From: a virus | Direction: 5' to 3' (one strand) | Virus record (IMG/VR): IMGVR_UViG_3300022562_001990 | Span: 5,440-69,439 of that record | DNA: 64,000 bases | In this document: positions 19,201 to 61,506 of the stretch, piece after piece | Numbering within the stretch: the stretch's first letter is position 1 | How the letters are laid out: each line of letters opens with the position of its first letter | The notes under the pieces: generated by a model | Database searches by the model: none | The model's input: the letters and a program-made list of their open reading frames with translations, nothing else | What the model was told of the DNA's origin: nothing | Program-made: the position numbers and the translations under genes

Positions 19201-19298
19201 CACAGCCACTATCGGAGAAGCAGGTCATTGATCTGCGGCGGGCAGTCATCGATGCTTACAGAGATGAGCTTGAGAGGAACCGTGGATTCACTGGATAA
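16281..19298 (+). CDS. Putative baseplate hub protein (gp27/gpD-like) with long C-terminal extension
   Basis: LRLYMEG...LLFEGIV start and GPFNMRPIPGFP...AYLDAIVHDI hub-like barrel; operon position. Confidence 0.6.
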   Translation: MPGHGKGAEVKLRLYMEGRLVENALNHVQVSGHTGSPATAQLSLVPTNTIKHILPGTWVHVFATDPWDQNPRGDVGDYKLLFEGIVVSRGFTRADDGRALSVQCADPSIYWVEARQFWLSITSANGGIVDQLAIQTSGGYGRFGSVTAEGVYGYMIPKIALTKDQGEERFMDTMISVIDDIGNVNPFYTNARNRFRITDRIIRGNAGNTEKLFQLALLSDFLDGLGGGQSGQSNLAQLVNQLLGSIMHEWVSVPAPPYVSTRIFSRDVFGNIKRKKTTVNRTDSRGRRKVDLFEYETAIDSVVASYIFKPHVYTLSPPTCNVLFPNMYDQMSYQENFMQETTRLQMMPQLPMKNQRQLMGLYMLRPAEIELFTAQIRDENSKSPGKRTPDGKYADGAGQAPRFNDYDWTTNEERIRGIVYNFINLAPAPSTLTLQGQGKKEPDGNRKGGIPDYLQNVASYEYFKAKFAARQSSLSGPFNMRPIPGFPILALDDSDADMNIVAYLDAIVHDISANGSATTQYAIQYPRFVDEVDFNRPRFKAAGTKYEGQLDFDLYRDERGNYDFGTIYDGENAPPIPEWFDEKLRSLTGLNDTYAEWFGSNVGVVQSFLFEDADDNEVALIAQQEAERTQEYEELGIDASKGVNLKVTTPSQVPGVTGETITASDALSDKNKDDIQRANDKITLQDATDELNDAYRRSRGDNREFELASTVTDRSFTRIDEAFRFVGASSVEYADRTKKPSQSARVTFDKNPAATRRVDYRTAKFRTFVGDTSTGSGYYGVKEGEAKPNPTTTSTTVSDATAGQVEVDAVSGADAAAPEDRMSGAFPVFDTTVHTGDEALDQKTRDSLLTSNSERAPSDRARYDGRPVMFDFEFRIWQDSLRIAGFSPTGERIADAAELATNYVTERGQTRPATAQELAQAREARAAAIAARKEEEEARASKGRGNPSKDPNMAPSQQAPTGDGLYQKEKPALPQPLSEKQVIDLRRAVIDAYRDELERNRGFTG

Positions 19299-20142
19299 AA
19301 ATGAAGACCTCGAGCTCGACGTAGAGGCTGAGCTTGAAGAGTGGCTAGAGAAGCAGGCTGCAGAGATGGGAATCTCGCAGGATGACCTGCGCCAGCAGGA
19401 GCTCGATGCGTGGGAGCGCTGGCGTTCGAACCCCAACCCAGAGGATTTTAGCTGGCTCTACAACAGCCACCAGCCACTCATCAACAGCGCAGGAGGCAGG
19501 TATCTCCGTACCGTGCAGCTTCCTAAGGCCGCAATCAAGAGCAGGCTTCTTCGGAACTACGTCAAGGCTCTCGAGACCTACGACCCGACCCGCGGAACCC
19601 AGCTGAGCAGCCATGTCTACAGTGGACTTGGGTACCGGATGCAGAGGTATATCCAGAAGTACACGAATGTCGGTCGAATCCCCGATGACCGAGCGTGGAT
19701 GATCCCCATGATCCAACAAAGGGAAGCCGCCTTGAATGATCTCCTGGGAAGGAAGCCGTCCGACGCCGAGCTAGCAGATGACATCCTCGTCTCGCAGCAG
19801 GGCCTATCCGACCTTCGGCGGGGACAGGTGACGCCCAAGAACGTGGCCACTACACGCAGGGAGCTGCGCAACGACCTCATTGCCGAGGAGGCCGGCGGAG
19901 AGGCTCAGCTTGGCGGCCGGTCTTATGTTGAGCAGCAGGCAGTGTTCCTCCATGGCTCGTTGAACCCGGAGCAGCAGCTCGTGCTCGAGCATACCTTCGA
20001 GGGATTCGGCAAGCCCATCATCACCGACGTGGACCAGCTTTCGAAGGAGCTGGACATGTCGCCGCAAAAGGTTCGCGCAATCAAGAAGCAGCTCGAAAGG
20101 AAGCTGGAGCGCTACTACCGCTCGACGAATGTGAGTGACTGA
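19282..20142 (+). CDS. Sigma70-family RNA polymerase sigma factor (FliA/SigF-like architecture)
   Basis: Region 2 KALETYDPTRGTQLSSHV, region 3 LGRKPSDAELAD, region 4 LNPEQQLVL...LSKELDMSPQKVRAIK. GTG 19282 follows GAGAGGA. Confidence 0.85.
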   Translation: MDSLDKNEDLELDVEAELEEWLEKQAAEMGISQDDLRQQELDAWERWRSNPNPEDFSWLYNSHQPLINSAGGRYLRTVQLPKAAIKSRLLRNYVKALETYDPTRGTQLSSHVYSGLGYRMQRYIQKYTNVGRIPDDRAWMIPMIQQREAALNDLLGRKPSDAELADDILVSQQGLSDLRRGQVTPKNVATTRRELRNDLIAEEAGGEAQLGGRSYVEQQAVFLHGSLNPEQQLVLEHTFEGFGKPIITDVDQLSKELDMSPQKVRAIKKQLERKLERYYRSTNVSD

Positions 20143-41659: not shown

Positions 41660-43708
41660 ATGGCAGGCGAAGAACTCAGCGGCCTGGGAGGTCGAGACAG
41701 ACGAAGGGGAACGGTCTATCCGTCGCCCTTCTTCGACATTGCTCAGACCTACATGCCGCCCACCGTGAAGGAGCTCTTCCGGTGGTGCCAGTACTTCTTC
41801 TACAAGGACCCGATGATCGGCTCCGTTGTGACGAAGATTGCCGAGTATCCGGTCACGAACTTCGTCTACAACGCCGACCAAAAGCATGTCCGCGATGGGT
41901 GGCAGGAGATCCTCGAGGACACGCTCAACATGAAGCCGTTCCTCATCGAGATCGGCCTAGACTACTTTTGCTACGGCAACGCATTCATCTCCATCAATCT
42001 TCCGTTCATTCGCTGGATTCAGTGCCCTCACAAAGGGTGCAACCAGATGCACAAGCTGTCGGACCCGGAGTTCGAATACCAGTTCAAGAACTACGAGTTC
42101 CACATGCGCTGCAAGGGATGTAGCGCCCAGACGGTTGGCAAGATTGTCGACAGGCCAGTGCGAGACCGCACAGGCATCAACTTCGTCCGATGGGATCCGA
42201 AGAACATCGACATCCACTACAACCCCATCACGGGCCGGTCGAAGTATCGCTACCGTATTCCGAACAAGATCCAAAAGGCCATCCAGCAGGGAATCCGAGA
42301 AATCCTCGTCGACATCCCGGAGGTCTTTCTCAATGCGATGAAGAAGAGGCGCGATATCGCCCTCTCCGACCAGAACATCTTCCACTTCAAACGCCCAACT
42401 CTTGCAGAGCAGGACATGGGTTGGGGCAAGCCGCTCATCATTCACTCGATGGGGCGCATGTTCTACCTCTACGTTCTTCGTCGCGCTCAGGAGGCAATTG
42501 CCCTGCAGCGCATCATGCCGCTTGAGTTCATCTTCCCGCAGGCGAACGCACAGCAAGACCCCTACCAGCACGTCAATCTCTCGAGCTGGCAGGGGACAGT
42601 GCAGACAGAAATCCGCAAATGGCGCATCGACCCCAACTACATCTCGGTCGTGTCGGTGCCTCTTGGTTTCGAGAGATTGGGGGGCGACGGCCGAGCTCTC
42701 TTGCTAGGACCCGAGATCGAAGTCACGAACAAAGAGATCACGGGTGGCATGGGCGTCCCCATCGAATTCGTTTTCGGCGGCCTGTCGTGGTCAGGCTCGA
42801 GCGTGTCCCTGAGGACTCTTGAGAACCACTTCCTTCTCTACCGAAGGCTCCTGCTCAGGTTCGTCAACTGGGCAAAGAACCGGATCAGGCTCTACCTCTC
42901 GCTTCCAGACGTGGACATCGGCTTCACCGAGTTCAAGATGGCGGACGACATCCAGCGCAAGCAGATCGTCATCCAGCTCAACGCGGCGAACAAGATCTCC
43001 GACCACACCATGCTCACCGAGCTCGGCTTCGACTACGACGACGAGCAGGCCATGATCGAGAAGGAGTCGGAGGCAAGGAACCGGATTCAGGCCATCACAA
43101 TGAAGGCCCAGACGGAGGCCCAGGGCGAGGCTCAGATCATCCAGGCCAAGTACCAGGCCAGGGCCCAGGAGGCCATGAACGAAGCCATGGGGCAGTCCTC
43201 CGGCGGCCAGCCAGGCCAGGAGGAGCAGGCCCAGGGGCAGGCCACTCAGGGCCAGGAGGGACAGGCACCTCCTCAAGAAGGCCAGCCGCCCCAGGAGGGC
43301 CAGGAGCAGCCACAGCAGGCCCAGCAGCCACAGCAGGCGGCCTCATCCAGCGAGCTCGCCCAGGACCAGCAGATGGCCCAGCAGGCAGCTCAGCAGGAAG
43401 CCGGGGCCGTGGAGGGGCAGGCCGCCGGACAGGCCGGTGAGCAGGCCGGGGCCCCCGCGGGAGGCCAGGTCCTCGAGCTCGACGCCTCGAGGGTCGCCAA
43501 GCAGTGGGCCAACCGGATCGCACAGCTCTCGCCCGACCAGCAGGGCCAGGTACTCAACGAGCTACGGCAGAAGATGCCGAACATGGCCCGAATCGTCGAA
43601 CAGCTACTCATGCAGATGGGCCCCGGCGGTACAGCCGGCGAGGCTGCCGAGCGCATGAAGCCACTTCCGCAGGCGGCGCCGCCGCGGCGTGAAGGAGGAG
43701 TCGTCTGA
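41660..43708 (+). CDS. Portal protein with Cys4 insertion and Gln-rich tail
   Basis: FLIEIGLDYFCYGNAFIS, WDPKNI and IFHFK...WGKPLI portal-like motifs. Confidence 0.75.
   Translation: MAGEELSGLGGRDRRRGTVYPSPFFDIAQTYMPPTVKELFRWCQYFFYKDPMIGSVVTKIAEYPVTNFVYNADQKHVRDGWQEILEDTLNMKPFLIEIGLDYFCYGNAFISINLPFIRWIQCPHKGCNQMHKLSDPEFEYQFKNYEFHMRCKGCSAQTVGKIVDRPVRDRTGINFVRWDPKNIDIHYNPITGRSKYRYRIPNKIQKAIQQGIREILVDIPEVFLNAMKKRRDIALSDQNIFHFKRPTLAEQDMGWGKPLIIHSMGRMFYLYVLRRAQEAIALQRIMPLEFIFPQANAQQDPYQHVNLSSWQGTVQTEIRKWRIDPNYISVVSVPLGFERLGGDGRALLLGPEIEVTNKEITGGMGVPIEFVFGGLSWSGSSVSLRTLENHFLLYRRLLLRFVNWAKNRIRLYLSLPDVDIGFTEFKMADDIQRKQIVIQLNAANKISDHTMLTELGFDYDDEQAMIEKESEARNRIQAITMKAQTEAQGEAQIIQAKYQARAQEAMNEAMGQSSGGQPGQEEQAQGQATQGQEGQAPPQEGQPPQEGQEQPQQAQQPQQAASSSELAQDQQMAQQAAQQEAGAVEGQAAGQAGEQAGAPAGGQVLELDASRVAKQWANRIAQLSPDQQGQVLNELRQKMPNMARIVEQLLMQMGPGGTAGEAAERMKPLPQAAPPRREGGVV
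43140..43470 (+). repeat. Low-complexity CAG/GGC-rich coding tract (Q/G/A/P)
   Basis: Encodes GQPGQEEQAQGQATQGQEGQAPPQEGQPPQEGQEQPQQAQQPQQA. Confidence 0.8.
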
Positions 43709-44055
43709 TGGCATCCGCAACTCCGATCAGGGCCTCCTTTGGCAACAGCGACCATGGCGTGTTCCACGCCGAGAAGTTCAGCATGTTCGAGGACGAGGAC
43801 CTTGAGCGCTACGCTGATCTCCGAAACCGGGCCAATGATGCCTCCAACGGCATCAAGATCGAAATGATGCGAGAATACTCGCGGAAGACGACAACCCGGG
43901 AAGGTTCGGGCCAAGACCAGGTCGTGACCACCAGCGAAGAAATCGTACTTGTGGTTCACTACTGGGCTAAGGAACCCCAACGCACCAAAGGAGACAGCGA
44001 TGAAGAACTTCAAGAAGCTAAAAAAGATTGGTCAGGCGAGCGCTCGGCTGGTTAG
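43708..44055 (+). CDS. Hypothetical protein
   Basis: TGATG coupling to the portal gene; GAAGGAGG RBS. Confidence 0.65.
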   Translation: MASATPIRASFGNSDHGVFHAEKFSMFEDEDLERYADLRNRANDASNGIKIEMMREYSRKTTTREGSGQDQVVTTSEEIVLVVHYWAKEPQRTKGDSDEELQEAKKDWSGERSAG

Positions 44056-44674: not shown

Positions 44675-45117
44675 TGCCCGAAGCAGGAAAAGAGTCGAAG
44701 GAGGCAAAGCAACCCTCCTTCGACCCCCACAAGCTCCTTGACCAGCTCAAGGGCATTGTCACCGAGAACAAGAAAGCGACCGGCGGTGGAAAGTCATGGG
44801 TGGGAACCCTGATCATCATCGCGGTCGTCCTTGCCGGCATTGCCCTCTGGTCATGGATCTCTTGGGGACGCAACAAGGAGCTCGCGAAGCTCCGGCACGA
44901 AAAGAACAAGGCCAAGATCCTGAAAGAGAAAGCCGAAGTCGACGCGAAGGTGGCCGAGGGTCACAAGGTAGTCGAAGAAGCCCAGAAGCGGATCGACAGT
45001 GCCGAGGAGAAGCTGCGTATCATCGACGCAGACATCCGAGCAGAGGAGAAACGCTATGAGGCTGATTTGCGCGCTATTGACTCTATCCGTTCTTGGCGGG
45101 ACGCCGGCATTCGCTAA
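44674..45117 (+). CDS. i-spanin-like protein (TM plus coiled coil)
   Basis: TM WVGTLIIIAVVLAGIALWSWISW followed by a long charged helix. Confidence 0.55.
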   Translation: MPEAGKESKEAKQPSFDPHKLLDQLKGIVTENKKATGGGKSWVGTLIIIAVVLAGIALWSWISWGRNKELAKLRHEKNKAKILKEKAEVDAKVAEGHKVVEEAQKRIDSAEEKLRIIDADIRAEEKRYEADLRAIDSIRSWRDAGIR

Positions 45118-45517
45118 CCCGCCGCCGCCCAGGGCAAAGAACATTCCCGAGTGCAAGCTCGTCACGACCAAGGATGGTCGCGAGCTCTGCGCCTACGAGC
45201 TCGACGAATGGGTCGCAGTACTCAAGGCCGATGCTCTCATCAGTCACCAGTACGTCATTCTCGGGAAGCTCGAGGAGCGGGTGGAGATCCTCGAGGAGCA
45301 GAAGATCGACTTTCAGAAACAGATCGCCGCTCTCACGTCGAACGAAGCCCTTCTCATCGAGAGGAACAACAAGATCACGCAGGATCTCATCGACCTAGAT
45401 AAAAAATATCAGGAAGAGCGAGTGCGGCCCAGGTGGGGATCTCCCCTGGCCTGGACCGCCGCCGCTGTATCAACAGCCGTGCTCGCTGGATTCCTGATCA
45501 GAGACGCGGTCGACTGA
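45056..45517 (+). CDS. Exported coiled-coil protein with C-terminal membrane anchor (spanin-partner-like)
   Basis: Signal MRLICALLTLSVLGGTPAFA, coiled coil, C-terminal hydrophobic helix; overlaps the upstream gene by 62 nt. Confidence 0.55.
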   Translation: MRLICALLTLSVLGGTPAFANPPPPRAKNIPECKLVTTKDGRELCAYELDEWVAVLKADALISHQYVILGKLEERVEILEEQKIDFQKQIAALTSNEALLIERNNKITQDLIDLDKKYQEERVRPRWGSPLAWTAAAVSTAVLAGFLIRDAVD

Positions 45518-45518
45518 C

Positions 45519-46007
45519 CTATCCCTCAAATTCGTCGAGAAAACTCGTCTGCCGAGAGGCGTTGGTTCTGCTCGGCTCTTGTCGTTGGTTTGGGGCCGGT
45601 TGATGAAGAGTGCTCCCCCCGAGCGGAATGGCCCCGCCGATGCTCGGTTGCATACTGGGCTGCAGACCCCCTCCCGCTGCGGTCATTGCTGCGACCGGTA
45701 GGATGGGATAGCCCTTCTGTTGCCATTTCCCCACGAAATGGGAATACACGAGGCTACCAGCGGCGATCATCGCGGCCCAGACACATGCCCCGAAGAATGT
45801 CTTGAGCCACCCCATCGCAGGAGATGCCGCCGCCGCTGTCGCCGGAGCGGATGCTGCGAGGTTCACCTGCGCTTTGTTGAGAACGAACCCGTGTGCAGGG
45901 ATTGTGATCACTGCCGCGGCTGCGCCCTTCAGTACCGTGGTCGTATGGCTGGCATTACCCCCGAATTGAGGCTGCCAGCCACCGTCCTTTTCTCTGTAGA
46001 AATACAT
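45519..46007 (-). CDS. Hypothetical single-TM protein
   Basis: AAGGAGG RBS; TM FFGACVWAAMIAAGSLVY. Confidence 0.7.
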   Translation of the reverse strand: MYFYREKDGGWQPQFGGNASHTTTVLKGAAAAVITIPAHGFVLNKAQVNLAASAPATAAAASPAMGWLKTFFGACVWAAMIAAGSLVYSHFVGKWQQKGYPILPVAAMTAAGGGLQPSMQPSIGGAIPLGGSTLHQPAPNQRQEPSRTNASRQTSFLDEFEG

Positions 46008-46030
46008 CGGACCTCCTTTCTTCTCCGATT

Positions 46031-46038
46031 CTTATGCC
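46031..46038 (-). promoter_or_regulatory. GGCATAAG putative phage-specific promoter
   Basis: Exact octamer 23 nt upstream of ATG 46007. Confidence 0.65.
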
Positions 46039-46292
46039 TGCGCAGGCTCGGTATGCCTGGTTGACCGCGGAGAGAGGAGGAGGATTCCTCGTCGAAGGAG
46101 CTCGAGAGAGAGAGCTGTCGCCGATGCCCAGAAGATCATCCTGCTTCCGAGCGATACCAACGCCCCACCGAGAGCGACAACATTGTTGGCGGTTTGCCCG
46201 AAAGCAGATTGAGCAACGGGGACGGTTCGTGACGGCAAAACCTGCTTGGTTCTTGCCGTCGGTGTAGTTTCGTGCGTTTGATAGATGTACAT
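46032..46292 (-). CDS. Possible small hydrophobic protein
   Basis: 86-aa ORF after an A-rich leader, no clear SD; competing ORFs exist. Confidence 0.35.
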   Translation of the reverse strand: MYIYQTHETTPTARTKQVLPSRTVPVAQSAFGQTANNVVALGGALVSLGSRMIFWASATALSLELLRRGILLLSPRSTRHTEPAQA

Positions 46293-46420
46293 GGATGGTT
46301 AGTTTTCTTGTAGTTGAGGGGTTGAAGAGGTGTTTCCGGTGCAATCGGATTCTTGATAGTATTTTTCGTGCTTTGGCTCCTCTTTGAGGGGATACAGCGG
46401 TAGATTCTTTCCACGATCTT

Positions 46421-46428
46421 CTTATGCC
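46421..46428 (-). promoter_or_regulatory. GGCATAAG putative phage-specific promoter
   Basis: Exact octamer 19 nt from the divergent RNAP start. Confidence 0.6.
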
Positions 46429-46447
46429 GGGACGATGTAGGTGACTG

Positions 46448-49400
46448 ATGGAAACGCTTGATTACGGGACGCAGTTCGAGGGACTGAAAAAGGACGTCGT
46501 TGCTGCGTTCACGAAGGCGTTGGACATCCAGGCGAAGGGAACGAATCGCCAGATCCGGGTCAACAAGGTCTGGATCGACGACACGAAGAACTCGTCGGAC
46601 TGGGAATCTCAGAGAGAAGCCGTTCGAAAAGACAAGACCTGGGGCGTCCCGGTCTACGCATCGCTGGACCTCATCGACCGAAAGACCGGAAAGGTCTTTT
46701 CATCGGCAAAGCGTATCAAGGTTGCGACGCTTCCCAAGAACACCGACCTCGGAAGCTTCATCGTCGACGGAAAGCACTACCAGGTGCAGAACCAGCTCCG
46801 GCGAAAGCCTGGCATCTACGTCACCGAGAAGAAGACTGGCGAGAAGAAGACCGAGATCAACATCAAGGGCCGCCCCTTCGACATCGAATACAACGATCAG
46901 GAGGCGACGTTCGGATTCATTCGGGGGCAGAACAAGACGCCGATCCCCCTCTATCCCATCCTCTCGAGGATTGGTATTTCCGACTCGGCTTTGGCGAAAG
47001 CCTGGGGCGAAGACGTCCTTGCGGCGAACAAAGCCGTTCCCAAAAAGCAGCAAGAGACGGCGGTCATCAAGGCGGCCGAGTACCTTACCGGCAGCAAGCT
47101 GGATTCTCCTGATGCCGCAGCAAAGGCCATCGCCGACTACCTCGAGGACACGGAGCTGCGTCCAGAGGTCACCAAGGAGACTGTCGGGAAGGCGTTCGAA
47201 AACGCTTCCCCGGAGGCAGTCTTTCGCGGCTCCATCGAGCTCCTCAAGGCTGCCCGTGGAGAACGGAAGCCCGACGATCGCCAGGCGCTCGAGTTCAAAA
47301 AGGTCATGGGGACAAGGGATCTCATCCGCGAGCGCTTGCTGCAAGAGAGCGGTGAGCTCGCGCCTAAGCTGGCCGAGTTTCGCAAGAAGGTCTACTGGCG
47401 ACTGAACAATCGCAAGGCCCCGCCAACGGATATCTCGAAGCTGGTGAGCTCGAACGAGTTCACCCCTGCGGTGACAAACTTCTTCACTCAGTCCCAGCTT
47501 GCGAGCACTACCGACCAGACAAATCCACTGAACATCCTCAACGGAATGTCGAAGGTCACGATTCTTGGCGAGGGCGGCGTCTCGTCTGAGAACGTGATCC
47601 GAGACGAAGAGCGCGGGGTCCATCCATCGCACCTCGGCTTCCTTGACCCGATCCACACCCCAGACTCGGGGAAGATCGGCGTGGTTGGAAACCTCCCGCT
47701 TGGCGTGAAGCGTCAGGGCGATAGCCTGATGACGAGGATCTTCGACCCGAAGACCAAGAAGTCTCGCTATGTCTCTCCGTCTGAGATGCGCAGCCTGAAC
47801 GTGGCGTTCCCGGACCAGTACAAAAACGGCGAGTTCATCGACGAGAAGGTGAAAGCTCTCCTCAAGGACAACGAGCTCGGCATTGTCGATGCCTCGAAGA
47901 TCGACGCTGTCCTAGCGTCACCGAAGCAAGCCTTCTCGATTTCCTCCAACACCATCCCATTCCTGCCGTCGGCCCAGGGCGTTCGTGCCCAAATGGCAAC
48001 GAAGATGCTCGAGCAGGCAATTCCTCTCGCTGAGCGAGAAGCGCCGCTTGTGCAAGTGAAGGCTGGCCGGTCAACGATGGAGGAAGGGATCGGAGAGGGC
48101 TTTTCGGTACGCGCCCTCGAGGACGGCGTGGTTGAGAAGGTGACCCCCAACAGAATCATCATCGCCACAAAGGACGGGAAGGTCGAGCAGCCAATCTTCA
48201 ACAACCTGAAGCTCAACAAAAAGGCGTTTCTCCATGGTGAGCCAACTGTCAAAGAGGGCGACCAGGTCAAGAAGGGGCAGGTAATAGCCGACTCCAACTT
48301 CACCAGGGACGGCACCCTGGCGATTGGTACGAACCTTCGCGCTGCCTACGTCCCATACAAGGGCCTCAACTTCGAGGACGGCATTGTCATCACCGAGACA
48401 GCTGCCAAGAAGCTTTCGAGTGAGCACATTCATGAGCATGCGGTCTCTCCCGACAAGGGCGACGAATACGACCTCGACGCCTTCCTTGCCTGGGATCCGG
48501 GGCGACTCGATGTAGAGCAGCAGAAGAAGCTCGACAAAGATGGCATCGTTCGGAAGGGTCAGATCGTCAAGAGGGGCGACCCGCTCTGGGTCGGAACCAG
48601 AGAGAACAGGCAGGACCCTGAGTATATCGCCATGAGGAAGATCTCGCCGAACGCAAAGCCTAGGCGAGGCCACATGGAGTCGTGGACCAATGACGTCGAC
48701 GGAGAGGTCGTCGATGTCGTCAAGACCGGGAAGAAGGTCAAGGTCTACGTCAAGACGAAAGAGCCAGCGCAGATCGGCGACAAGCTCACAAACCGGCACG
48801 GCGGCAAAGGCATCATCACGAAGATCATTCCAGACGGCGAGGCTCCCCATACAGGAGACGGAGAGAACGTCGACATCCTTCTGAACCCTCACGGCATTGT
48901 CAGTCGAATCAACCCCTCCCAGATGCTCGAAACCGCGGCGGCCAAGATGGCCGACAAGCTGAACGCCACTTATGTGGTCGACAACTTTTCCGGCGAAGAC
49001 TACGTCGAGACCATCAAGAAGGAGCTCGAAAAGACGAAGGTGTCCGACAAGGAGCTCCTGTTCGATCCGCACTCCAAGGACCCACTGGGGGAAGTGCTTG
49101 TGGGACCGCAGTATTTCCTGAAGCTCAACAAGCAGGCGACCTCGCAGTTTTCGGCCAGGTCTGATGGCAAGTACGACGCGAACAAGTCTCCTCTGCGCGG
49201 TGGCGAGGACGGCGCAAAGTCACTCGACCTTCTCACCTTCTACTCGATGCTCTCCCATGGCAGCCGCGCCAACCTACGAGAGATGGCCACCTACAAGGCG
49301 TCGAAGAACGACCACTTCTGGAACTGGCTAAAGGGTGGCCACAAGAGCGGCATGGTGAAGCCGCCGCCGGTGCCAACCTTTGCCTACAACAAATTCGAAG

Positions 49401-52400
49401 CCTACTTGAAGGGGGCTGGCGTCAACGTCCAGCGCCGCGGATCCAAGATGGTCCTCGGTCCCATGACGGACGAGCACACTGCCAGGCTCTCAAACGGCGC
49501 GATCAAGGAGCCGCTCTTCGTCCGGGGCAAAGACCTTCGAGAAGAGAAGGGTGGGCTCATGGATATCGACATCACAGGTGGCCGCCAGGGCGACAAGTGG
49601 TCTCACATCGAGCTGGCAGAGCCAATTCCGAACCCTGCGTTTGAGAAGCCAATCCGCACTCTGACGGGACTGAACCAGGCCCAGTACAACGGCCTTACGT
49701 CAGGGAAGCTCTTTGTCGATCCCGAGACGGGGGAGTGGGCAGAGTCGGGTGTCACCGGAGGTGCTGGCCTCCAGGCGATGCTCAGGCAGATCGACATCGA
49801 TGATGAGATCAAAAAGAAGACCGACGAAGCGAAGACGGCAAAGACAACTGCAAAGCTGGATGCTGCAAACAAGAGCCTGAAGTACCTCTCCGCTCTGAAG
49901 AAGTTGAACCTTCGGCCGGAGGATGCGTACATCCAGACGAAAATTCCGGTTCTACCGCCCCAGTTTCGACCGGTCATTGAGCTCGAGGGCGGACAGCTCT
50001 CGAACCCCGGCGTGAACACGCTCTACCGAGATGTAGGCCTCATCAACAACGAGCTCGAGTGGCAGAAGACCGTCCCCTATCTCACCGACGAGATCAAGGC
50101 TGAGCTCCGCGAGGACCTCTACAACGGAACGAAGGCAGTTGCTGGTCTTGGTGACCCGATCTTCAGGTACCCACAGAAACGGTCTCCAAAGGGCCTTATC
50201 ACGCAGATCACGGGCGCACCAAAGTCGGGGAAAGAGGGCATGTTCATCAAGAAGGTCCTCAAGCGCAACCAGGACCTTGTCGGCCGCGGAACCATCATTC
50301 CTGAGCCAAAGCTCGGCTTGGACGAGGTTGGCCTCCCGGAGGAGATGTCGTGGAATCTTTTCGAGCCATTCGTCACAAGGCGGCTCGTCAACAGCGCCGG
50401 CAAGTCGCCACTCATGGCAGCCGAGGAAGTTCGAAAGCGCACTCCTGTTGCCAAGGCAGCCCTCGAGGCTGAGATGGCCGAACGGCCAGTCCTACTCAAT
50501 CGGGCACCGTCCCTTCACAAGTTCTCCATCATGGCCTTCAAGCCTCGCCTCACAGATGGCAAGGCAATCAAGATTCCACCGCTTGTCGTGAAGGGGTTCA
50601 ACGCCGACTTCGATGGTGACGCAATGACGGTTCACGTACCCGTGCTCACCGAGGCGGTGCAGGAGGCGGAGCGCATGCTCCCATCCAACAACCTGTTCAA
50701 CCCAGGTACCGGTGGCATCATGACGCAGCCGCAGAACGAAGCTGCGCTTGGTCTCTACATGATGTCCAAGGATCCTCAGAAGAGCGAGAGCATCATCAAG
50801 GAGCTCCCCAAGCCACTGCAGGAAAAGTATCGCGGCGTCGAGCTCAACAAAAAGAACCTCGGCAACCTCATGAAGGACATGGCCGAGGTGGCGCCTCGCG
50901 AGCACGGAAAGGTCATCGACAAGCTCAAGGCCATGGGCGATGAGCACACCTACAAGACCGGGTTCTCCGTTGGCATCAACGATCTAACCCCGGCCATTCC
51001 GGAGCGAGACAAGATCTTCAAGAAGACTGAGCAGAGCATCGCAAAGCTGAAACTCAGTGACCCGAAGGGCGTCGAGAGAGCGCGAGAGATTCTCGACAAG
51101 GCCAATGGCGAGCTCGAGGAGGCCATGAAGAAGCGTCTTGGAGAACAAGACAACAACTTCGACCTGATGGTTCGCTCTGGAGCCAGAGGCAACATCACCC
51201 AGCTCAAGCAGATCGTTTCGTCGCCATTCATGGTTCCAGACCACAAAGGCGACCCCATCCCTCTCCCTGTCACTAGGTCTTTCGCCCAGGGCCTCAAGTT
51301 CTCTGACTACTGGAATACGCTCTACGGGGCGCGAACTGTTGCAACCGAAAAGCAACTCCAGACCAGTGTCCCCGGTGCCTTCAACAAGGACATCATGGCG
51401 GCATCGATCACCAATGTCGTTGCCGACAGCGACTGCAAAACATCCAAGGGCCTCGAGATCGGAATCGACAGCCCAGATGTAGAGGATCGGTTTCTGGCAA
51501 AGGATGTTTCTGTCAACGGAACCATCATTGCGAGAGCTGGAAACCCTGTCACCCCTGGGCTCCTCAACACCATGCGAGAGCGACACGTTGGGAAGGTCGA
51601 AGTGCGGTCTCCGTTGACCTGCAAGCTCCCTAAGGGAACTTGTGCAAAGTGCTACGGGCTTACCGAGAATGGGCAGCTTCCTGCGATCGGCGACAACATC
51701 GGCGCCATCTCCGGGCAGGCTCTCAGTGAACCCTTGACCCAGATGACGCTCCGAACCTTCCATTCCGGCGGCGTGTCTCAGGCCCGCGGCGTAGCAACGG
51801 GCTACGACAAGATCGACAAGCTTCTCAAGATGCAGAAGATCAAGCGCGGCAAGGCCACTCTCGCCCAGGTCAGCGGCAAGGTGGAATCCGTCAAGGAGGC
51901 GCCAGGTGGAACGGGCAAGAACGTGAAGATTGGGAAGACGACCCACTTCATCCCGAACGAGCTCTGGGAGCCGTCGATGGTCAGGACCGGGAAGTCGGTC
52001 GAGAAGGGCGACATCCTGTCTGCCGGACTGGCGCAGCCGAACGAGCTTGCCGATCTCAAGGGAATGCTCCCCGCCCAGGAGTACATCTCCAGCCAGGTGC
52101 AGGACGCCTACCAGAAGCAAGGCGTTCCCATCAAACGGCGCGCTGTCGAAACGGTGCTCAGAGCTGTCGGGAACACGACGAAGGTGCTCGACCCGGGCGA
52201 CAGCGGGTTCCTCCCCGGAGACATTGCCCCCTACACAGCCGTCGAGGACTTCAACAACAAGTCGCTCGGCAAGAAGATGATCGAAGAGGCTCTCGGGCAC
52301 CGCCTTCAGGAGGATATGCCTGGCGTGAAAAAGGGGACCGTCATCACCGAGAGGGTCAAGAACATCCTCGAAAGGGCAGGTATCAGCAAGGTCGAGGTCG

Positions 52401-52636
52401 GCCCCAAGCCCATCGATCACCAGCCCTTCCTCTCAGGAATTCAGCGAGCTCCGCTGATGCGAGACGACTGGATGAGCCAGATGGGCTACCAGTACCTCAA
52501 AGATGCCATAATCGAGGGCGCAGGTTCCGCCGGTGAGTCAGACATCCACGGATATTCGCCCATCCCAGCCTTCGCCTATGGCGCGGAGTTTGGCGATGAG
52601 CCGGCCGGCCTCTCGAAGAAGAAGGGCGTGTACTGA
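46448..52636 (+). CDS. rpoBC: DNA-directed RNA polymerase, single-chain beta-beta' fusion
   Basis: Beta motifs: DQTNPL, HPSHLGFLDPIHTP, NFEDGI, GDKLTNRHGGKG, LNPHGIVSR. Beta' motifs: HIELAEP, PVLPPQFRP, LNRAPSLH, NADFDGD (50600-50620), SEPLTQMTLRTFH. No stop between the halves. Confidence 0.96.
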   Translation: METLDYGTQFEGLKKDVVAAFTKALDIQAKGTNRQIRVNKVWIDDTKNSSDWESQREAVRKDKTWGVPVYASLDLIDRKTGKVFSSAKRIKVATLPKNTDLGSFIVDGKHYQVQNQLRRKPGIYVTEKKTGEKKTEINIKGRPFDIEYNDQEATFGFIRGQNKTPIPLYPILSRIGISDSALAKAWGEDVLAANKAVPKKQQETAVIKAAEYLTGSKLDSPDAAAKAIADYLEDTELRPEVTKETVGKAFENASPEAVFRGSIELLKAARGERKPDDRQALEFKKVMGTRDLIRERLLQESGELAPKLAEFRKKVYWRLNNRKAPPTDISKLVSSNEFTPAVTNFFTQSQLASTTDQTNPLNILNGMSKVTILGEGGVSSENVIRDEERGVHPSHLGFLDPIHTPDSGKIGVVGNLPLGVKRQGDSLMTRIFDPKTKKSRYVSPSEMRSLNVAFPDQYKNGEFIDEKVKALLKDNELGIVDASKIDAVLASPKQAFSISSNTIPFLPSAQGVRAQMATKMLEQAIPLAEREAPLVQVKAGRSTMEEGIGEGFSVRALEDGVVEKVTPNRIIIATKDGKVEQPIFNNLKLNKKAFLHGEPTVKEGDQVKKGQVIADSNFTRDGTLAIGTNLRAAYVPYKGLNFEDGIVITETAAKKLSSEHIHEHAVSPDKGDEYDLDAFLAWDPGRLDVEQQKKLDKDGIVRKGQIVKRGDPLWVGTRENRQDPEYIAMRKISPNAKPRRGHMESWTNDVDGEVVDVVKTGKKVKVYVKTKEPAQIGDKLTNRHGGKGIITKIIPDGEAPHTGDGENVDILLNPHGIVSRINPSQMLETAAAKMADKLNATYVVDNFSGEDYVETIKKELEKTKVSDKELLFDPHSKDPLGEVLVGPQYFLKLNKQATSQFSARSDGKYDANKSPLRGGEDGAKSLDLLTFYSMLSHGSRANLREMATYKASKNDHFWNWLKGGHKSGMVKPPPVPTFAYNKFEAYLKGAGVNVQRRGSKMVLGPMTDEHTARLSNGAIKEPLFVRGKDLREEKGGLMDIDITGGRQGDKWSHIELAEPIPNPAFEKPIRTLTGLNQAQYNGLTSGKLFVDPETGEWAESGVTGGAGLQAMLRQIDIDDEIKKKTDEAKTAKTTAKLDAANKSLKYLSALKKLNLRPEDAYIQTKIPVLPPQFRPVIELEGGQLSNPGVNTLYRDVGLINNELEWQKTVPYLTDEIKAELREDLYNGTKAVAGLGDPIFRYPQKRSPKGLITQITGAPKSGKEGMFIKKVLKRNQDLVGRGTIIPEPKLGLDEVGLPEEMSWNLFEPFVTRRLVNSAGKSPLMAAEEVRKRTPVAKAALEAEMAERPVLLNRAPSLHKFSIMAFKPRLTDGKAIKIPPLVVKGFNADFDGDAMTVHVPVLTEAVQEAERMLPSNNLFNPGTGGIMTQPQNEAALGLYMMSKDPQKSESIIKELPKPLQEKYRGVELNKKNLGNLMKDMAEVAPREHGKVIDKLKAMGDEHTYKTGFSVGINDLTPAIPERDKIFKKTEQSIAKLKLSDPKGVERAREILDKANGELEEAMKKRLGEQDNNFDLMVRSGARGNITQLKQIVSSPFMVPDHKGDPIPLPVTRSFAQGLKFSDYWNTLYGARTVATEKQLQTSVPGAFNKDIMAASITNVVADSDCKTSKGLEIGIDSPDVEDRFLAKDVSVNGTIIARAGNPVTPGLLNTMRERHVGKVEVRSPLTCKLPKGTCAKCYGLTENGQLPAIGDNIGAISGQALSEPLTQMTLRTFHSGGVSQARGVATGYDKIDKLLKMQKIKRGKATLAQVSGKVESVKEAPGGTGKNVKIGKTTHFIPNELWEPSMVRTGKSVEKGDILSAGLAQPNELADLKGMLPAQEYISSQVQDAYQKQGVPIKRRAVETVLRAVGNTTKVLDPGDSGFLPGDIAPYTAVEDFNNKSLGKKMIEEALGHRLQEDMPGVKKGTVITERVKNILERAGISKVEVGPKPIDHQPFLSGIQRAPLMRDDWMSQMGYQYLKDAIIEGAGSAGESDIHGYSPIPAFAYGAEFGDEPAGLSKKKGVY

Positions 52637-53640
52637 TGGATGAGATCGAATACCCAGGAATCCCTCCGCGAGAGAAAAGAGAGGAAGACAACTTCCTGCC
52701 TGCCCTCGCCGGGGCAGCGTCGCTGTTCCTCACGCCAAAGATGCTTGAGCCATACGGCAGGATCCCGCTCGAGATGTACGAGAAGTCCACTGCCGACCTG
52801 GCGATCAAGGCTCCCCAGGGAACTCCTCTCGAGCAGATCGCAGAGTTCACGCCGGATGAGGTTCAAAAGATCCGAGGGTTCGCCGACAGGAAGGGCGTCA
52901 CGGCAGCAATCGAGGCCGCCGGGCCTGGAGAAGGAAGCCACTTCGCCCTCCGTGGCATTGGGGATGAGGGCGTTGTCAGGCTGGGCAAGAGCCACGTTCC
53001 GAGTGCCCTTCACGAGATCGGCCACGCCTCTCCCATCCTAGGAAGCCGCGGTCTTCGAGACACCTCTCTCATTGGCCACTCTCTCTCGCGAGGCCGGCCA
53101 GGAAAGCTACTCCGCGCAGCAATCGGCCTGAACCTTCTCCGCGACCAGGAGGACGCTGGTGAGCTCTCCCAGTTCGCCTACGAGAATGCGCCAGCCCTCA
53201 TGGGGGCCACCTATGCCCCGATGCTCCTCGAGGAGGCCCGTGCGAGCGGTCACGCCATCGCAGGAGGTAAAAAATTCGGCCCTGGAGCCATGGAGACTGC
53301 CAAGTCGATGGCGCCGGCCTTCGGGACCTATCTCACGAGAGCGCTTGCCCCCATCATTGCGGCTATCGTCACCAAGAGGGTTGTGGAGAGCGTGCGTGGG
53401 TCCAAGGACGGCCATGAAAAGGAGGCGCTCGAGCAGACGCCACGCATCCTTCGGGCAAGCGCGGCTTCGGCCTGGCGAATGAGGCCGCCGGCGGCCAAGC
53501 CGAAGACCACGAAGCCGACAAGCAGCCTCTCCGCAAACGGCAAGGAGGTCGCGAAGCTTCAGCCTCCAAGCAACAAGGCCTACTACCGGGACCTTCTTGA
53601 GTCTCTGCACAACCCGGCGCGCGGGTTCCGTAGCACCTAG
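52636..53640 (+). CDS. Putative zincin metalloprotease
   Basis: ALHEIGHA (HExxH) with downstream EEARAS third-ligand-like motif; coupled to the RNAP stop (TGATG). Confidence 0.65.
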   Translation: MDEIEYPGIPPREKREEDNFLPALAGAASLFLTPKMLEPYGRIPLEMYEKSTADLAIKAPQGTPLEQIAEFTPDEVQKIRGFADRKGVTAAIEAAGPGEGSHFALRGIGDEGVVRLGKSHVPSALHEIGHASPILGSRGLRDTSLIGHSLSRGRPGKLLRAAIGLNLLRDQEDAGELSQFAYENAPALMGATYAPMLLEEARASGHAIAGGKKFGPGAMETAKSMAPAFGTYLTRALAPIIAAIVTKRVVESVRGSKDGHEKEALEQTPRILRASAASAWRMRPPAAKPKTTKPTSSLSANGKEVAKLQPPSNKAYYRDLLESLHNPARGFRST

Positions 53641-54152
53641 TTTGGCTTCTTGGTGAATCCGTAGCAGGCGAGATCGGCACCCTTCGTCCCGAGCTCGACG
53701 CAAGACTTCTCGCCGTTGTTGTCGCCGTCCATGGGGGCGCTGATGAACCACCTGCAGTCTCTGCAGCGAAGCTGCTTTCCACGGTACCCGGCCTCTCTGT
53801 AGTCCTGCGTCATATTTCTCGAGTCCTCTCGAAGGTGGGCTCTAAGAAAAAGGCGCTCACGCGCTGCAGGCTCAAGGTCCTTCAGATCTACCCGATGAAT
53901 GATCAGGTGATCTCTGAAGGCCTTGAGTTCTGCAGGCGGGATTACAACTTCGTTCTCTTCGAGGAAGGCTTGGAGCTCAACCAGGCTTCCGTCCTCCACG
54001 CTGCGTCTGAGGATTTTGCCGAGGGTTTTGATGTGTTCCGGGGTTTGTAGGTCCAGAATCTTCTTGGCCTCAGCAACGCGCTTTTCAACATCCTCGAGGA
54101 CTCTCAGCTGCGCGGGGGACAGCTTGCTGCGGTCTAGCTCTTTTGCCTCCAT
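53637..54152 (-). CDS. Hypothetical protein with C-terminal Cys cluster
   Basis: CRDC...C...C; shares CTAG stop with the convergent gene. Confidence 0.7.
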   Translation of the reverse strand: MEAKELDRSKLSPAQLRVLEDVEKRVAEAKKILDLQTPEHIKTLGKILRRSVEDGSLVELQAFLEENEVVIPPAELKAFRDHLIIHRVDLKDLEPAARERLFLRAHLREDSRNMTQDYREAGYRGKQLRCRDCRWFISAPMDGDNNGEKSCVELGTKGADLACYGFTKKPN

Positions 54153-54159
54153 AGGACGC

Positions 54160-54648
54160 TCATGCTAGCCCAATATGCGCCCCAACGAAATTCCCCAGGT
54201 CGCACGGAGGCATCGTTCTGATCCGTCCGAGGTCGTGGGCAACTGATGAGATTGGGCAGTGCGTCGCGAGATTCGGTGTCCAAGAGAGTATTTGCCTGAT
54301 ATCTCGGGCAATGTACGCCGAATCATCGATGTCCCCTTCGTCGAATCGATCGACACAGCCAAAGCCATCGGCAAGCTGGTCGGTTTCCTCGACTCGCAGA
54401 TTGAGGTTCTTCATGACAACCCAGAACGAGTCCGTGTCCGGGGCGACAATCAGAAGCCTCAGGGCTGCGATTGGGAACGGAGAGCTGCTCCAGCAATAGT
54501 TGCCAGAGAGCCCTGCCAGTGGTGGACTGAGCTCACAGAGAAGTCCGTTCTCTTTCACGAAGAAAGACCCTGTGGGTAGGACGAGGTCTTCCTTTGTCGG
54601 GCTTGGCTCTTTCACCCGTTTGTTTTCATGGTGGGCATAGAATAGCAA
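54160..54648 (-). CDS. Hypothetical protein (start uncertain)
   Basis: Fills the gap in the minus-strand operon; the antisense frame is also open. Confidence 0.45.
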   Translation of the reverse strand: MLFYAHHENKRVKEPSPTKEDLVLPTGSFFVKENGLLCELSPPLAGLSGNYCWSSSPFPIAALRLLIVAPDTDSFWVVMKNLNLRVEETDQLADGFGCVDRFDEGDIDDSAYIARDIRQILSWTPNLATHCPISSVAHDLGRIRTMPPCDLGNFVGAHIGLA

Positions 54649-54675
54649 GGTGGGATCCTCCTGATACGGGGTTGG

Positions 54676-58831: not shown

Positions 58832-59728
58832 GTGCGTTACCCATACGAGCGATTTCTACGGTTCCTTGTATCGCGTAAGGTACCGGTCGATCGGACGCTA
58901 GACCGCTATGGCCTTCCGTCTGTCGGCGCGCTGTGGGAAGCCGATTGTCGGACGAACATCCGCAAGTCGGCTCCCTACTCCGTTTCGCAGTACATAGACG
59001 CGGACGACGACCAGGAGCTTGTCGCTCGAGAGGGCTTCATCGAGTGGGCGGAGAAGGAGGGCTTCGCTCCTCTCTGGATGATTCAGCGCGAATTCGGAGG
59101 GGCCAAGCCGTCCCCCGCTCTCGACACGGCGTTCCAAATCTTCGTAAACCCACATGCGCGAGCTGTCGTGGGAATGCTCCTCTTGTCAGAGGTTCCCTCG
59201 GACGAGATCTGTAGCCTTGTTCAGACGCGGTTCGACCTGGGCGTCGACGAGGAGACGCTAGATCTCTACACAACCATCTTCTGGGATATCGAGCTCCTTG
59301 GCAGGGCCGGATGGCAAGCCTTCATGGCCGAGCTCAAGACCAAGGAGGAGCGCCATTACATCGGCCTTGGCCTTGGCTCCCCGAGCTCGGCCGATGCCCG
59401 TCGCTACCTGGGCGTCGAGGTCAACTTTGACCCGGAGGCGATCCTCAAGGACCTCGCCCTTACCGCGCACACCCAGTACAAAGCTTGCATGGCCCAGCCG
59501 GACCCTGAGTCGGCCGGCGCCCTCAAATGGCACGATGCCACCATCAAGGCAATCAACTCTCTCGGAACGACCAAGAAGGCCTTTGGAGGAGACGACGAGA
59601 TCGGGGCAAGCGACTTCAACAGCATGTTCTCGGTGCAGATTGAAAAGATTCAACACGTATCACTGACCGAGCTCGTCGGAGAGGTTTCGCCGAAGGACGA
59701 CAACAGCAAGACCCCCGAGGAAGAGTAG
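58832..59728 (+). CDS. Hypothetical protein, possibly terminase small subunit
   Basis: Directly upstream of and coupled to TerL; position only. Confidence 0.5.
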   Translation: MRYPYERFLRFLVSRKVPVDRTLDRYGLPSVGALWEADCRTNIRKSAPYSVSQYIDADDDQELVAREGFIEWAEKEGFAPLWMIQREFGGAKPSPALDTAFQIFVNPHARAVVGMLLLSEVPSDEICSLVQTRFDLGVDEETLDLYTTIFWDIELLGRAGWQAFMAELKTKEERHYIGLGLGSPSSADARRYLGVEVNFDPEAILKDLALTAHTQYKACMAQPDPESAGALKWHDATIKAINSLGTTKKAFGGDDEIGASDFNSMFSVQIEKIQHVSLTELVGEVSPKDDNSKTPEEE

Positions 59729-61506
59729 TGGACGTTGTCGAGCAAGAAATCGATGAGCTCGATGAGATGGATGTCGATCCGTTCGACTTCACCGACAAGG
59801 CATTCGACCAGCCAAATCTCGTTCCAGAGATCGATTGGAACGAGATCTACGATTGGCAGCCACGCCTAAAAGAGATTCACAAGCCAGGTTCGACTAGCGC
59901 CTCCTTCACAGGGAGGAAGAGTGACATTGCACAGGCAATTCTCTACCACCTCGGCAAGCCACTACGACTCGACAACCACGCCTTCATGCTTCCGGTCTTC
60001 AACTCGAACGACCCGCGCATGGTCCTCAAGTGTTCTCGCCAGGTCGCAAAGTCCACGACCCTTTGCAACATTCAGATTCTCGAATCAGTCATCAGGCCAC
60101 ACTGGAGAAGCCTCTACGTCTCCCCGTCCGCCCTGCAGACCAGGCAGTACTCCAATGAGAAGCTACGCCCCACGATCTACGATTCGCCCTTCCTGAAGCG
60201 GGTCTTCGTCGGCAAGGGCATCACCGACCAGGTCTTCGAGAAGACGCTGCTCAATGGCTCCTACATGTTCCTGCGGTATGCATTCCTTACCGCAGCTCGA
60301 GCTCGAGGTATTCCAGCCTCGAGGGTTCTCTTCGACGAGACCCAGGATCTCCTCAAGGACAACATCAAGGTCATCTCGCAGTCGCTCTCAGCGTCGCGAC
60401 TTTCCGCAGGTGTCGAAGGTGCGGAGCTCCTGGCCGGCACCCCCCTCACTTTCTCGAACACCCTCGAGGAGTACTGGAAGTGGTCAACTCAGAACGAGTG
60501 GCTTGTTCCATGTGACTGCAAGACACCGCGCTATTGGAACTTCCTTGACTCGAAAAACATCGGCAAAGACGGACTGATTTGTTCGAACTGTCAGAGGCCA
60601 CTCAATGCACAGGCCGGGCAGTGGGTCACCTTCGAGCCGAACGAGTTCTACACCGGGTACCACATCTCTCAGCTCATGGTGCCATGGAAGCAGTCGGCCG
60701 AGGCATGGCGCGCTGAGATCTATCAACCCTTCGAGAAATGGCCCGAGTCGAAGTTCAACAACGAGATCCTCGGCTTCTCCTTCGACAACGCGTCCTCGCC
60801 CGTCACGAGGATGGATCTTCAGCAGAACTGCTACCCAACCAAGCAGGTCCGCGGCGTAGACAACCAGCGCTTCACTTTTCAGCGAACCCCGAGGCACTCG
60901 GGAATGCGAATCTTCGCCGGGATCGACTGGGGCGAGGGCCGCGAAGAAGGCGAGGTCGCCGGCGGCAAGAAGAAGTTCGCCTCCTGGACCGTGCTCACAA
61001 TCGGAGGCTACATCGGCAGCGATGAGTTCTGGCCTTTCCTAATGAAACGCTACACCGGGAAGGAGGTTGACCCCGAGCTCATCCTTCCGGACGTTCTCCA
61101 CCTCTGCTCCTACTGGAACGTGGAGATCATCGGAGCCGACTGGGGACACGGATGGGGAATGAACAGCAGGCTCTTCAAGGCCCGTGGCCGCGAAGGGGTC
61201 ATGCAGTTCGCCTATTCTTCGAACCTTGGAGAGCGCAAGCGTTGGGACGCTAACGCCTTCAAGTTCATCATCAACCGGAACGCGGTCCTCTCCCAGTTCT
61301 TCCAGGGCATCAAACAGAACAAATTCATCTTTCCGGAGTGGGAGCATTTCGAGCCTTTCGCGAAGGATATCCTCGCGGAATATGTGGAGTACAATGAGCG
61401 CACCCGGACGATGATGTACGACCACCCCATTGACCAGCCTGATGATGCCCTTCACAGTGCGGTCTATTGCAAGCTGGCGGCTGACATCGCCATGGGGAGG
61501 TTCTAG
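59728..61506 (+). CDS. terL: Terminase large subunit (lambda GpA-like)
   Basis: VLKCSRQVAKST (Walker A variant), VLFDE, AGTP, CDC...CSNC, nuclease AGIDWG and DDALHS. Confidence 0.88.
   Translation: MDVVEQEIDELDEMDVDPFDFTDKAFDQPNLVPEIDWNEIYDWQPRLKEIHKPGSTSASFTGRKSDIAQAILYHLGKPLRLDNHAFMLPVFNSNDPRMVLKCSRQVAKSTTLCNIQILESVIRPHWRSLYVSPSALQTRQYSNEKLRPTIYDSPFLKRVFVGKGITDQVFEKTLLNGSYMFLRYAFLTAARARGIPASRVLFDETQDLLKDNIKVISQSLSASRLSAGVEGAELLAGTPLTFSNTLEEYWKWSTQNEWLVPCDCKTPRYWNFLDSKNIGKDGLICSNCQRPLNAQAGQWVTFEPNEFYTGYHISQLMVPWKQSAEAWRAEIYQPFEKWPESKFNNEILGFSFDNASSPVTRMDLQQNCYPTKQVRGVDNQRFTFQRTPRHSGMRIFAGIDWGEGREEGEVAGGKKKFASWTVLTIGGYIGSDEFWPFLMKRYTGKEVDPELILPDVLHLCSYWNVEIIGADWGHGWGMNSRLFKARGREGVMQFAYSSNLGERKRWDANAFKFIINRNAVLSQFFQGIKQNKFIFPEWEHFEPFAKDILAEYVEYNERTRTMMYDHPIDQPDDALHSAVYCKLAADIAMGRF

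Follow-up and report, generated by a model that had tools for sequence, protein, structure and literature searches.

A fused beta-beta' RNA polymerase gene on a tailed-phage contig: a candidate single-chain, sigma-dependent phage enzyme

The gene P0001 lies in a window of 64,000 nucleotides (the whole stretch of DNA that was analysed, positions 5,440 to 69,439 of the IMG/VR virus record IMGVR_UViG_3300022562_001990) and encodes, in one open reading frame (ORF), the beta and then the beta' subunit of a bacterial-type RNA polymerase. Taken as a whole, the data are likely to be best explained by a single-chain bacterial-type phage polymerase core, which would form a holoenzyme with a sigma factor of the same phage and would be packaged in the virion. 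The record is a single virus contig of 69,439 bp without terminal repeats, estimated by CheckV to be 38% complete, which corresponds to a genome of about 180 kb.

The Fused Gene and Its Junction

The original prediction, made from the nucleotide letters alone, had placed beta and then beta' in one ORF of 2062 amino acids (aa), and the open frame, the order of the Pfam domains and BLASTP all bear this out. An AGGTGA ribosome-binding site stands 5 nt ahead of the ATG. In hidden Markov model (HMM) alignments the Rpb2 domains precede the Rpb1 domains, with Rpb2_3 (residues 355-416) and Rpb2_6 (558-911) followed by Rpb1_1 (1114-1208), Rpb1_2 (1340-1410), Rpb1_4 and Rpb1_5 (1615-1921), and the closest solved structures are bacterial beta' chains (E 5e-114). 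The alignment is collinear with both E. coli subunits: BLASTP pairs residues 19-191 with RpoB (1342 aa) 51-229, 332-757 with 492-931 and 762-995 with 1048-1338, and pairs residues 1049-1775 with RpoC (1407 aa) 100-939 and 1773-1968 with 1128-1317. The E. coli stretches that stay unaligned (beta about 229-492, beta 931-1048 and beta' 939-1128) hold what we take to be the lineage-specific insertions SI1, SI2 and SI3, and these three appear, from the alignment, to explain most of the difference in size. The enzyme had been called minimal, which is right insofar as it is shorter than E. coli beta and beta' together, but the gap consists mostly of E. coli insertions and the beta half superposes on full-length beta.

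The two halves meet where the join had been predicted, near 49430-49450: beta homology ends at residue 995 and a linker of about seven residues follows. With HMMER, residues 1003-1044 or so are collinear with beta' 12-53, a stretch that has no significance when taken alone, and significant beta' homology restarts at about residue 1101, or with BLASTP at residue 1049, the equivalent of E. coli beta' 100. The first 100 residues of E. coli beta' are thus represented by only about 49 residues, and cysteines are absent from the segment equivalent to residues 1000-1054 in all aligned family members (0/58), which agrees with the clean deletion of the beta' N-terminal zinc-binding domain that had been read from the sequence. 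Both the tight junction and the cysteine-free zinc-ribbon segment are conserved family-wide, including in the cultured Salmonella phage Arash and Vibrio phage D69. At the other end of the protein, a C-terminal tail (52540-52633, residues about 2030-2062) with the consensus HGYxPVPAFAYGAEFG...GKY is conserved in the family and has no BLASTP alignment to E. coli beta'; a packaging signal and a substitute for omega are possibilities for its role.

Independent assemblies support the join. A contig of 9134 nt from a run that is a possible source of the record is identical to the window over 46300-52122 (0 differences), and contigs of two other studies span the junction without gaps, one from run X5 over 48958-49535, with a single difference at 49475 (C>T, giving H1010Y), and one from run X6 over 49360-49543; runs X4-X6 are without cover over parts of P0001, which carries no evidential weight. 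Since independent contigs bridge the junction without indels, and with neither the stop nor the frameshift that had been named as the finding that would overturn the reading, the fusion is genuine and no assembly artefact. The same open frame persists in relatives down to about 35% identity. As a separate observation, fragments at least 99% identical to P0001 (window 46300-52800) occur at low depth in runs of several studies labelled as marine sediment, soil, gut and a coded organism, and reflect either a cosmopolitan phage or host or a sequence that travels as a contaminant.

Catalytic Elements and Predicted Structure

P0001 retains both double-psi beta-barrels, with the NADFDGD motif in beta' and the active-site lysines in beta (the K1065/K1073 region), together with the flap-tip helix, the clamp helices, the bridge helix, the trigger loop and the four cysteines of the second zinc site. 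Two overlapping AlphaFold models, each built from a 58-row family alignment, cover residues 1-1150 (predicted local distance difference test, pLDDT, 84.7; predicted template modelling score, pTM, 0.74) and residues 880-2062 (pLDDT 85.5, pTM 0.82). The full folds, namely protrusion, lobe, flap, clamp, bridge helix and trigger loop, are present, and the models superpose on their bacterial counterparts at template modelling (TM) scores of 0.65-0.76. The beta-half model matches full-length bacterial beta over about 1100 columns (best match 9ujk_C, E 5.6e-70, 25% identity), and the beta'-half model matches bacterial beta' at TM of about 0.75. No extra domain that might substitute for alpha is present in the two models.

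In rifampicin cluster I, five positions differ from E. coli (H526 to Gly, S531 to Thr, Q513 to Ser, F514 to Thr and R529 to Lys), all of which we take to be positions of rifampicin resistance. With the pocket altered in this way, transcription by the phage is therefore predicted to be probably insensitive to rifampicin.

A Large Family of Tailed Phages

The original prediction had implied that such an enzyme is rare, and in this it was wrong: P0001 is one member of a huge, already sequenced and partly published phage family with cultured relatives, whose clade has probably been published as mReC, to judge from the accessible text of that paper (PMC7481178). An exhaustive search with the beta' half returned 13,555 matches at E values up to 1e-3. 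All 120 relatives listed from a database clustered at 90% measure 1995-3221 aa, carry both Rpb2 and Rpb1 domains and stand on contigs of at most 186 kb. Among the best 150 representatives of 50%-identity clusters (E 1e-168 or better), 126 reach at least 1900 aa, with 66 at 1900-2200 aa and 60 longer, and the remainder comprise 15 at 1150-1899 aa and 9 that are shorter; these 24 could be contig-edge fragments or split forms. In IMG/VR, 220 loci of P0001 relatives were confirmed, and the phages that carry the polymerase are tailed and have genomes of roughly 150-215 kb.

Sixteen long IMG/VR relatives (12 of them at least 90% complete, 3 with terminal repeats) served for the analysis of gene content. 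In 15 of them the polymerase is a single uninterrupted frame (1998-2531 aa), in the other it is split into 662 and 1478 aa, and the relatives yielded no further gene for a multisubunit polymerase. Among deposited phages, coverage of 80% or more of the query at a single place is reached only by the Vibrio phages D69, D181 and D148, Arash attaining 67% at its best place; the fully fused form was not found in any cultured phage of that collection. A relative of 2008 aa, P0070, is 44% identical to the window protein and its longest contig measures 180,819 bp, which is exactly the genome size of Arash, yet the Arash polymerase is split and about 34% identical.

Family members of 2350-3700 aa are numerous, and intein or LAGLIDADG domains (PF14890, PF14528) were seen in about 19 of the 120 listed relatives, while a homing endonuclease lies within the polymerase region of the Vibrio phages D181 and D148. 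The polymerase gene is a hotspot for selfish elements, and such elements may be the reason for the divided genes of Arash, D69 and G011 (the last being another carrier of the split form).

Viral Versus Cellular Origin

The fused ORF could in principle be a cellular rpoBC gene on a host or mis-binned contig, or an artefact of assembly or frameshift, and the finding of related genes on contigs binned into metagenome-assembled genomes (MAGs) labelled as bacteria or archaea would fit the former. Against this, those contigs are phage-sized (79-183 kb) and the polymerase genes on them fall with the phage family, the window itself encodes portal, terminase and baseplate proteins within an IMG/VR virus record, independent contigs bridge the junction, and the same open frame is kept in more than 100 relatives; we therefore regard this explanation as extremely improbable.

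The cellular scan used one genome per prokaryotic species and the search pattern ADFDGD[TA]M, which biased the cellular sample mostly to Patescibacteria and E. coli, so that the excess of Patescibacteria is an artefact of the pattern. Every family member that it met stood on a phage-sized MAG contig and had an identity of 33-44%, and genuine cellular beta' genes reached 27-31%. A beta' tree was then built (IQ-TREE quick search, LG+C20, 62 rows, 1046 columns, support by the Shimodaira-Hasegawa-like approximate likelihood ratio test, SH-aLRT, only), in which the family was sampled with 26 random and 10 picked representatives, 3 MAG-binned members, Arash, D69 and the window protein, with L097 and L103 left out. 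In this narrow sampling, 42 phage-family rows are split from 19 cellular rows with an SH-aLRT of 100, and the window protein branches far inside the phage family, as the sister of P0004. As far as sequence comparison goes, P0001 thus falls outside the sampled cellular beta' sequences, and the nesting in a cellular rpoBC clade on a host contig that the original prediction had considered was not seen. A streamlined, bacterial-like, single-chain enzyme on a phage contig is what the comparisons indicate, as had been proposed.

Family members were observed on MAG contigs of 31-183 kb (L096, L097, L098, L099, L103, L127, L129 and L138), with MAG labels that comprise Dependentiae, Dehalococcoidia, Aenigmatarchaeota, Deltaproteobacteria, Gemmataceae, Thermoguttaceae and Aquaspirillum; most likely they come from phages and were wrongly binned with cellular genomes. 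One of them, L098, is identical to P0251 in those beta' columns that the tree retained. A fused beta-beta' ORF of 2318 aa also occurs on a 15-kb MAG contig labelled 'uncultured Bacillus sp.' (L135:2530-9483); it is the long-branch sister (branch length 1.47) to the entire phage family and may represent a second fused lineage.

Absence of Phage-Encoded Alpha and Omega

No alpha or omega gene had been noticed in the window, and searches of the whole contig and of the relatives agree. The alpha domain PF01000 was matched nowhere in the 69,439-bp contig, which answers the proposed search for rpoA in its remainder, nor in any of the 16 long relatives or in Arash and D69 (0/2), with all 14 cellular controls positive; omega (PF01192) likewise gave no match in the contig or in the 16 relatives, with controls at 14/14. 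The contig represents about 38% of the genome, and absence there means little without the relatives. For PF01193, 0/16 relatives exceeded the cut-off and 0/2 of Arash and D69 matched (cellular controls 14/14), the one sub-threshold match in the relatives containing stop codons, and for the alpha C-terminal domain (PF03118) 0/16 relatives and 10/14 cellular controls were over the cut-off. By the gene content of the contig and of these relatives, the family lacks phage-encoded alpha and omega. We infer alpha-independence of the enzyme from this, and use of host alpha is possible.

The fused enzyme may indeed be real and alpha-dependent, assembling with the host alpha dimer and perhaps omega as Helicobacter RpoBC does. 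Alpha is retained by the fused RpoBC enzymes of cells, P0001 has complete, bacterial-like folds of both subunits, so that alpha-binding surfaces may persist, and a missing phage gene is silent on the use of a host protein. On the other hand, a packaged enzyme that acts on entry would need alpha carried over from the previous host, and the covalent link between beta and beta' would remove much of the need for an assembly platform. Alpha-less cores also have a precedent, because jumbo-phage multisubunit polymerases function without alpha (PMC7598289, as described in the accessible text). Dependence on host alpha is in our view possible but rather doubtful.

A Phage Sigma Factor as the Probable Partner

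Initiation by the fused enzyme would rely on a sigma70-family factor, P0268, encoded in the same window. Homologues of P0268 occur in 15 of the 16 long relatives and in all 12 that are near-complete, and it is homologous to Arash gp10, annotated as 'RNA polymerase sigma factor' (E 1.5e-17). A profile of 54 members of this sigma family matches RpoS (E 1.1e-17) and SigA (about 1e-17) over regions 2 to 4, and Pfam recognises Sigma70_r3 in 51 of the 54, r2 in 16 and r4 in 5.

Structure prediction with the phage sigma, as had been suggested, was run on beta' 1000-1460 (numbered along P0001) with P0268, and gave a score of 0.82, the best of three controls scoring 0.00; this mark is reached by 58 of 80 solved complexes and by 2 of 110 mismatched pairs. 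Contacts agreed by at least 25% between runs, the partner pLDDT was at least 68, and the confident contacts join beta' residues 1176-1223, the clamp helices, with the N-terminal half of sigma. The model suggests a likeness to the canonical interface and falls short of proof of binding, because sigma-beta' complexes have been solved many times over.

Proposed Mechanism and Virion Packaging

In the mechanism that we propose, the fused chain and the phage sigma would constitute a two-polypeptide holoenzyme, in which the covalent link between beta and beta' would take over the assembly role of the alpha dimer. The polymerase would be made late with the head proteins, enter the virion and reach the next cell together with the DNA, where it would begin early transcription; this would follow from the position of the gene between portal and terminase and from the split homologue being the protein most detected in Arash virions. 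Later transcription would also be carried out by the fused enzyme, because the search of the relatives turned up no other multisubunit polymerase gene.

The evidence for packaging comes from purified Arash particles, in which Gp206 (beta with the N-terminal part of beta') yielded the most spectra, 3516 compared with 1333 for the major capsid protein, and in which Gp216 (the C-terminal part of beta') and the sigma factor Gp10 were detected too, according to the accessible text (PMC10585845). The polymerase could instead be purely intracellular, made by the host polymerase after infection and serving middle and late genes, with its abundance in Arash particles due to carry-over, an alternative raised by the Arash authors themselves in the same text (PMC10585845). 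The packaging lead is the proteome of a split-form phage and not of a fully fused member, and a gene position beside the portal is suggestive only. Such carry-over would have to account for a polymerase subunit with more spectra than the major capsid protein and for the co-detection of sigma and of the C-terminal beta' subunit (PMC10585845), and the polymerase gene shares a conserved block, and its orientation, with portal and terminase. A solely intracellular role therefore strikes us as less than probable, without being far-fetched.

Several points weigh against a packaged, alpha-independent, sigma-dependent enzyme. The Arash authors note that abundant enzymes may merely contaminate purified particles (PMC10585845, accessible text), and packaging of the window enzyme, probable as we hold it to be, is an extrapolation from Arash, whose protein is about 34% identical. 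Host alpha and omega could be recruited, and three weak sub-threshold matches that resemble the alpha C-terminal domain were seen in small ORFs of relatives. The pairing of sigma with beta' is a textbook one, and the complex model may owe its score to memory. Matches to sigma70-type promoters near the gene are not enriched (2, with 2.4 expected). A T7-type polymerase (PF00940) was found in 0/16 relatives, a result of no weight as its control also found nothing. The cellular sampling of the tree, mostly Patescibacteria and E. coli, includes neither Helicobacter nor Wolbachia.

A stronger version of the proposal, which we advance tentatively as quite possible rather than probable, is that this family provides the simplest sigma-dependent multisubunit RNA polymerase known: a chain of 2062 aa and a sigma of 292 aa, free of alpha, omega and the zinc ribbon, which the capsid would carry and which would be threaded into the host along with the DNA, to refold there without a platform. 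If this is true, covalent fusion would be an evolutionary substitute for alpha, and the two genes would make a ready-made orthogonal bacterial-type transcription system.

Gene Neighbourhood

The features of the window are collected in Table 1. Portal, polymerase, the 856-aa ORF and the terminase large subunit (TerL) form a conserved co-oriented block: across 81 related loci, portal lies upstream in 51, the 856-aa ORF downstream in 50 and TerL in 33, counts that are limited by flanks of 10 kb. The 334-aa ORF appears, by its distribution, not to be a family-wide subunit, because it is confined to close relatives (13/81 loci). A baseplate wedge protein and a helicase are also encoded in the window; most neighbouring ORFs are without a PHROGs or Pfam match, and window positions 40000-60000 have no megablast match among deposited phages.

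Table 1. Features of the polymerase locus and its surroundings, in window coordinates.
Feature	Coordinates	Strand	Remarks
Sigma70-family factor, 292 aa (P0268)	19264..20142	+	putative initiation partner of the fused enzyme
Portal protein	41660..43708	+	homologous to Arash portal gp204, E 1e-68; upstream of polymerase
Fused beta-beta' RNA polymerase gene (P0001), 2062 aa	46448..52636	+	single uninterrupted ORF
Beta module, residues 1-995	46448..49432	+	whole bacterial beta fold, without E. coli insertions
Linker, about 7 residues (RRGSKMV)	49433..49453	+	between last beta- and first beta'-homologous residue; family-conserved
Beta' module, residues about 1003-2062	49454..52633	+	catalytic elements and second zinc site kept, SI3 absent
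Excised beta' N-terminal zinc ribbon site	49577..49603	+	TGGRQGDKW replacing about E. coli beta' 65-98
Catalytic NADFDGD motif, residues 1385-1391	50600..50620	+	
334-aa ORF	52636..53640	+	ATG overlaps polymerase stop codon (TGATG); no family match
856-aa ORF	56255-58825		between polymerase and terminase; no Pfam or PHROG match
Terminase large subunit	59728..61506	+	phrog_675, 2.6e-51; Pfam PF05876; downstream, same orientation as polymerase

Two very large ORFs elsewhere in the window gave no PHROG match, namely 10589-14221 (1210 aa) and 30383-35041 (1552 aa), the latter with a weak match to a right-handed beta-helix (E 1.5e-4), the product of which may be a tail fibre or depolymerase. Among possible regulatory signals, 15 terminator-like sites were seen with 13.5 expected. 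The motif TTCTTATGCC, present twice upstream of the polymerase gene, showed no enrichment, with 5 matches and 1.84 expected, a number of matches that 6 of 100 shuffles reach.

Comparison With Known Systems

The closest published counterpart is mReC, described by Weinheimer and Aylward in 2020 as 97 metagenomic Caudovirales contigs whose beta and beta' form a deep branch (PMC7481178; here and below, according to the accessible text). As in mReC, the family is found on tailed-phage contigs, many of them from IMG/VR, with polymerase genes amid phage hallmark genes, beta and beta' recognised by cellular HMMs and a clade apart from cells (PMC7481178). P0001 stands on a viral contig, matches the cellular beta and beta' profiles, contains the NADxDGD motif and branches separately from its cellular homologues, the sampling of which was narrow. 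The mReC screen would accept a fused protein, the word 'fused' is used there for crAssphage alone, and the accessible text does not mention a single-chain architecture, a sigma partner, the absence of alpha and omega or the loss of the zinc ribbon (PMC7481178). The markers of an mReC subset are a major capsid protein matching PF07068 and a TerL matching PF03237 (PMC7481178), whereas the TerL of the window matches PF05876 instead. PF03237 was not matched in the contig itself (0/1), and PF07068 was matched in 0/6 records, but its control likewise matched nothing anywhere. All in all, the P0001 family is probably the mReC clade.

Among cultured phages, Arash (OQ632216) and the Vibrio phages D69, D181 and D148 carry polymerases of the same family at 32-34% identity. 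Arash and D69 share with the window the tight junction, the cysteine-free zinc-ribbon site, the order of portal and then polymerase, and a homologous sigma. They differ in that beta' is split, the beta and N-terminal beta' portion measuring 1525 and 1527 aa and the separate C-terminal portion 606 and 609 aa, respectively; the second beta' gene lies 4.7 kb away in Arash and 0.6 kb downstream, past two small ORFs, in D69.

The fused RpoBC proteins of Helicobacter and Wolbachia also have beta and then beta' in a single ORF, but these are cellular enzymes that work with alpha and omega and keep the zinc ribbon, whereas P0001 comes from a phage contig and falls among phage sequences. Phages phiKZ and AR9 likewise encode double-psi-beta-barrel polymerases without alpha or omega, one set of which is packaged in the virion; theirs are highly diverged, consist of 4-5 polypeptides in two paralogous sets and have no sigma homologue, as far as the accessible texts describe them (PMC7598289, PMC7824862). 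In contrast, P0001 is one chain in one copy, is recognised by Pfam and has a sigma70-family partner. The polymerases of crAss-like phages and YonO resemble it in having both barrels in one polypeptide; these are too diverged for the COG0085 and COG0086 models, whereas P0001 matches bacterial beta' readily (E 1e-114).

A literature search, with subscription journals and supplements outside its reach, found no paper on fusion, zinc-ribbon loss or sigma partnership in this family in the texts accessible to it (PMC7824862, PMC7598289 and PMC12153180 among those). The searchable literature treats the clade as a phylogenetic marker only, and the architecture and its implications are under-described and experimentally accessible. 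To our knowledge, every multisubunit polymerase of cells brings its two large subunits together on an alpha-like platform, and the only exceptions that we know of are the highly diverged, fragmented enzymes of phiKZ-type phages. The family represents the opposite case, in which hundreds of phage lineages have a barely diverged bacterial-type single-chain core and a sigma that can be recognised as such. With it, one can ask directly if tethering is able to replace alpha and what the beta' zinc ribbon is for; it also bears on how a multidomain enzyme of about 230 kDa may be delivered by a virion and offers a compact candidate for orthogonal transcription; the cultured relatives Arash and Vibrio phage D69, with their split versions of the same enzyme, make its biochemistry accessible.

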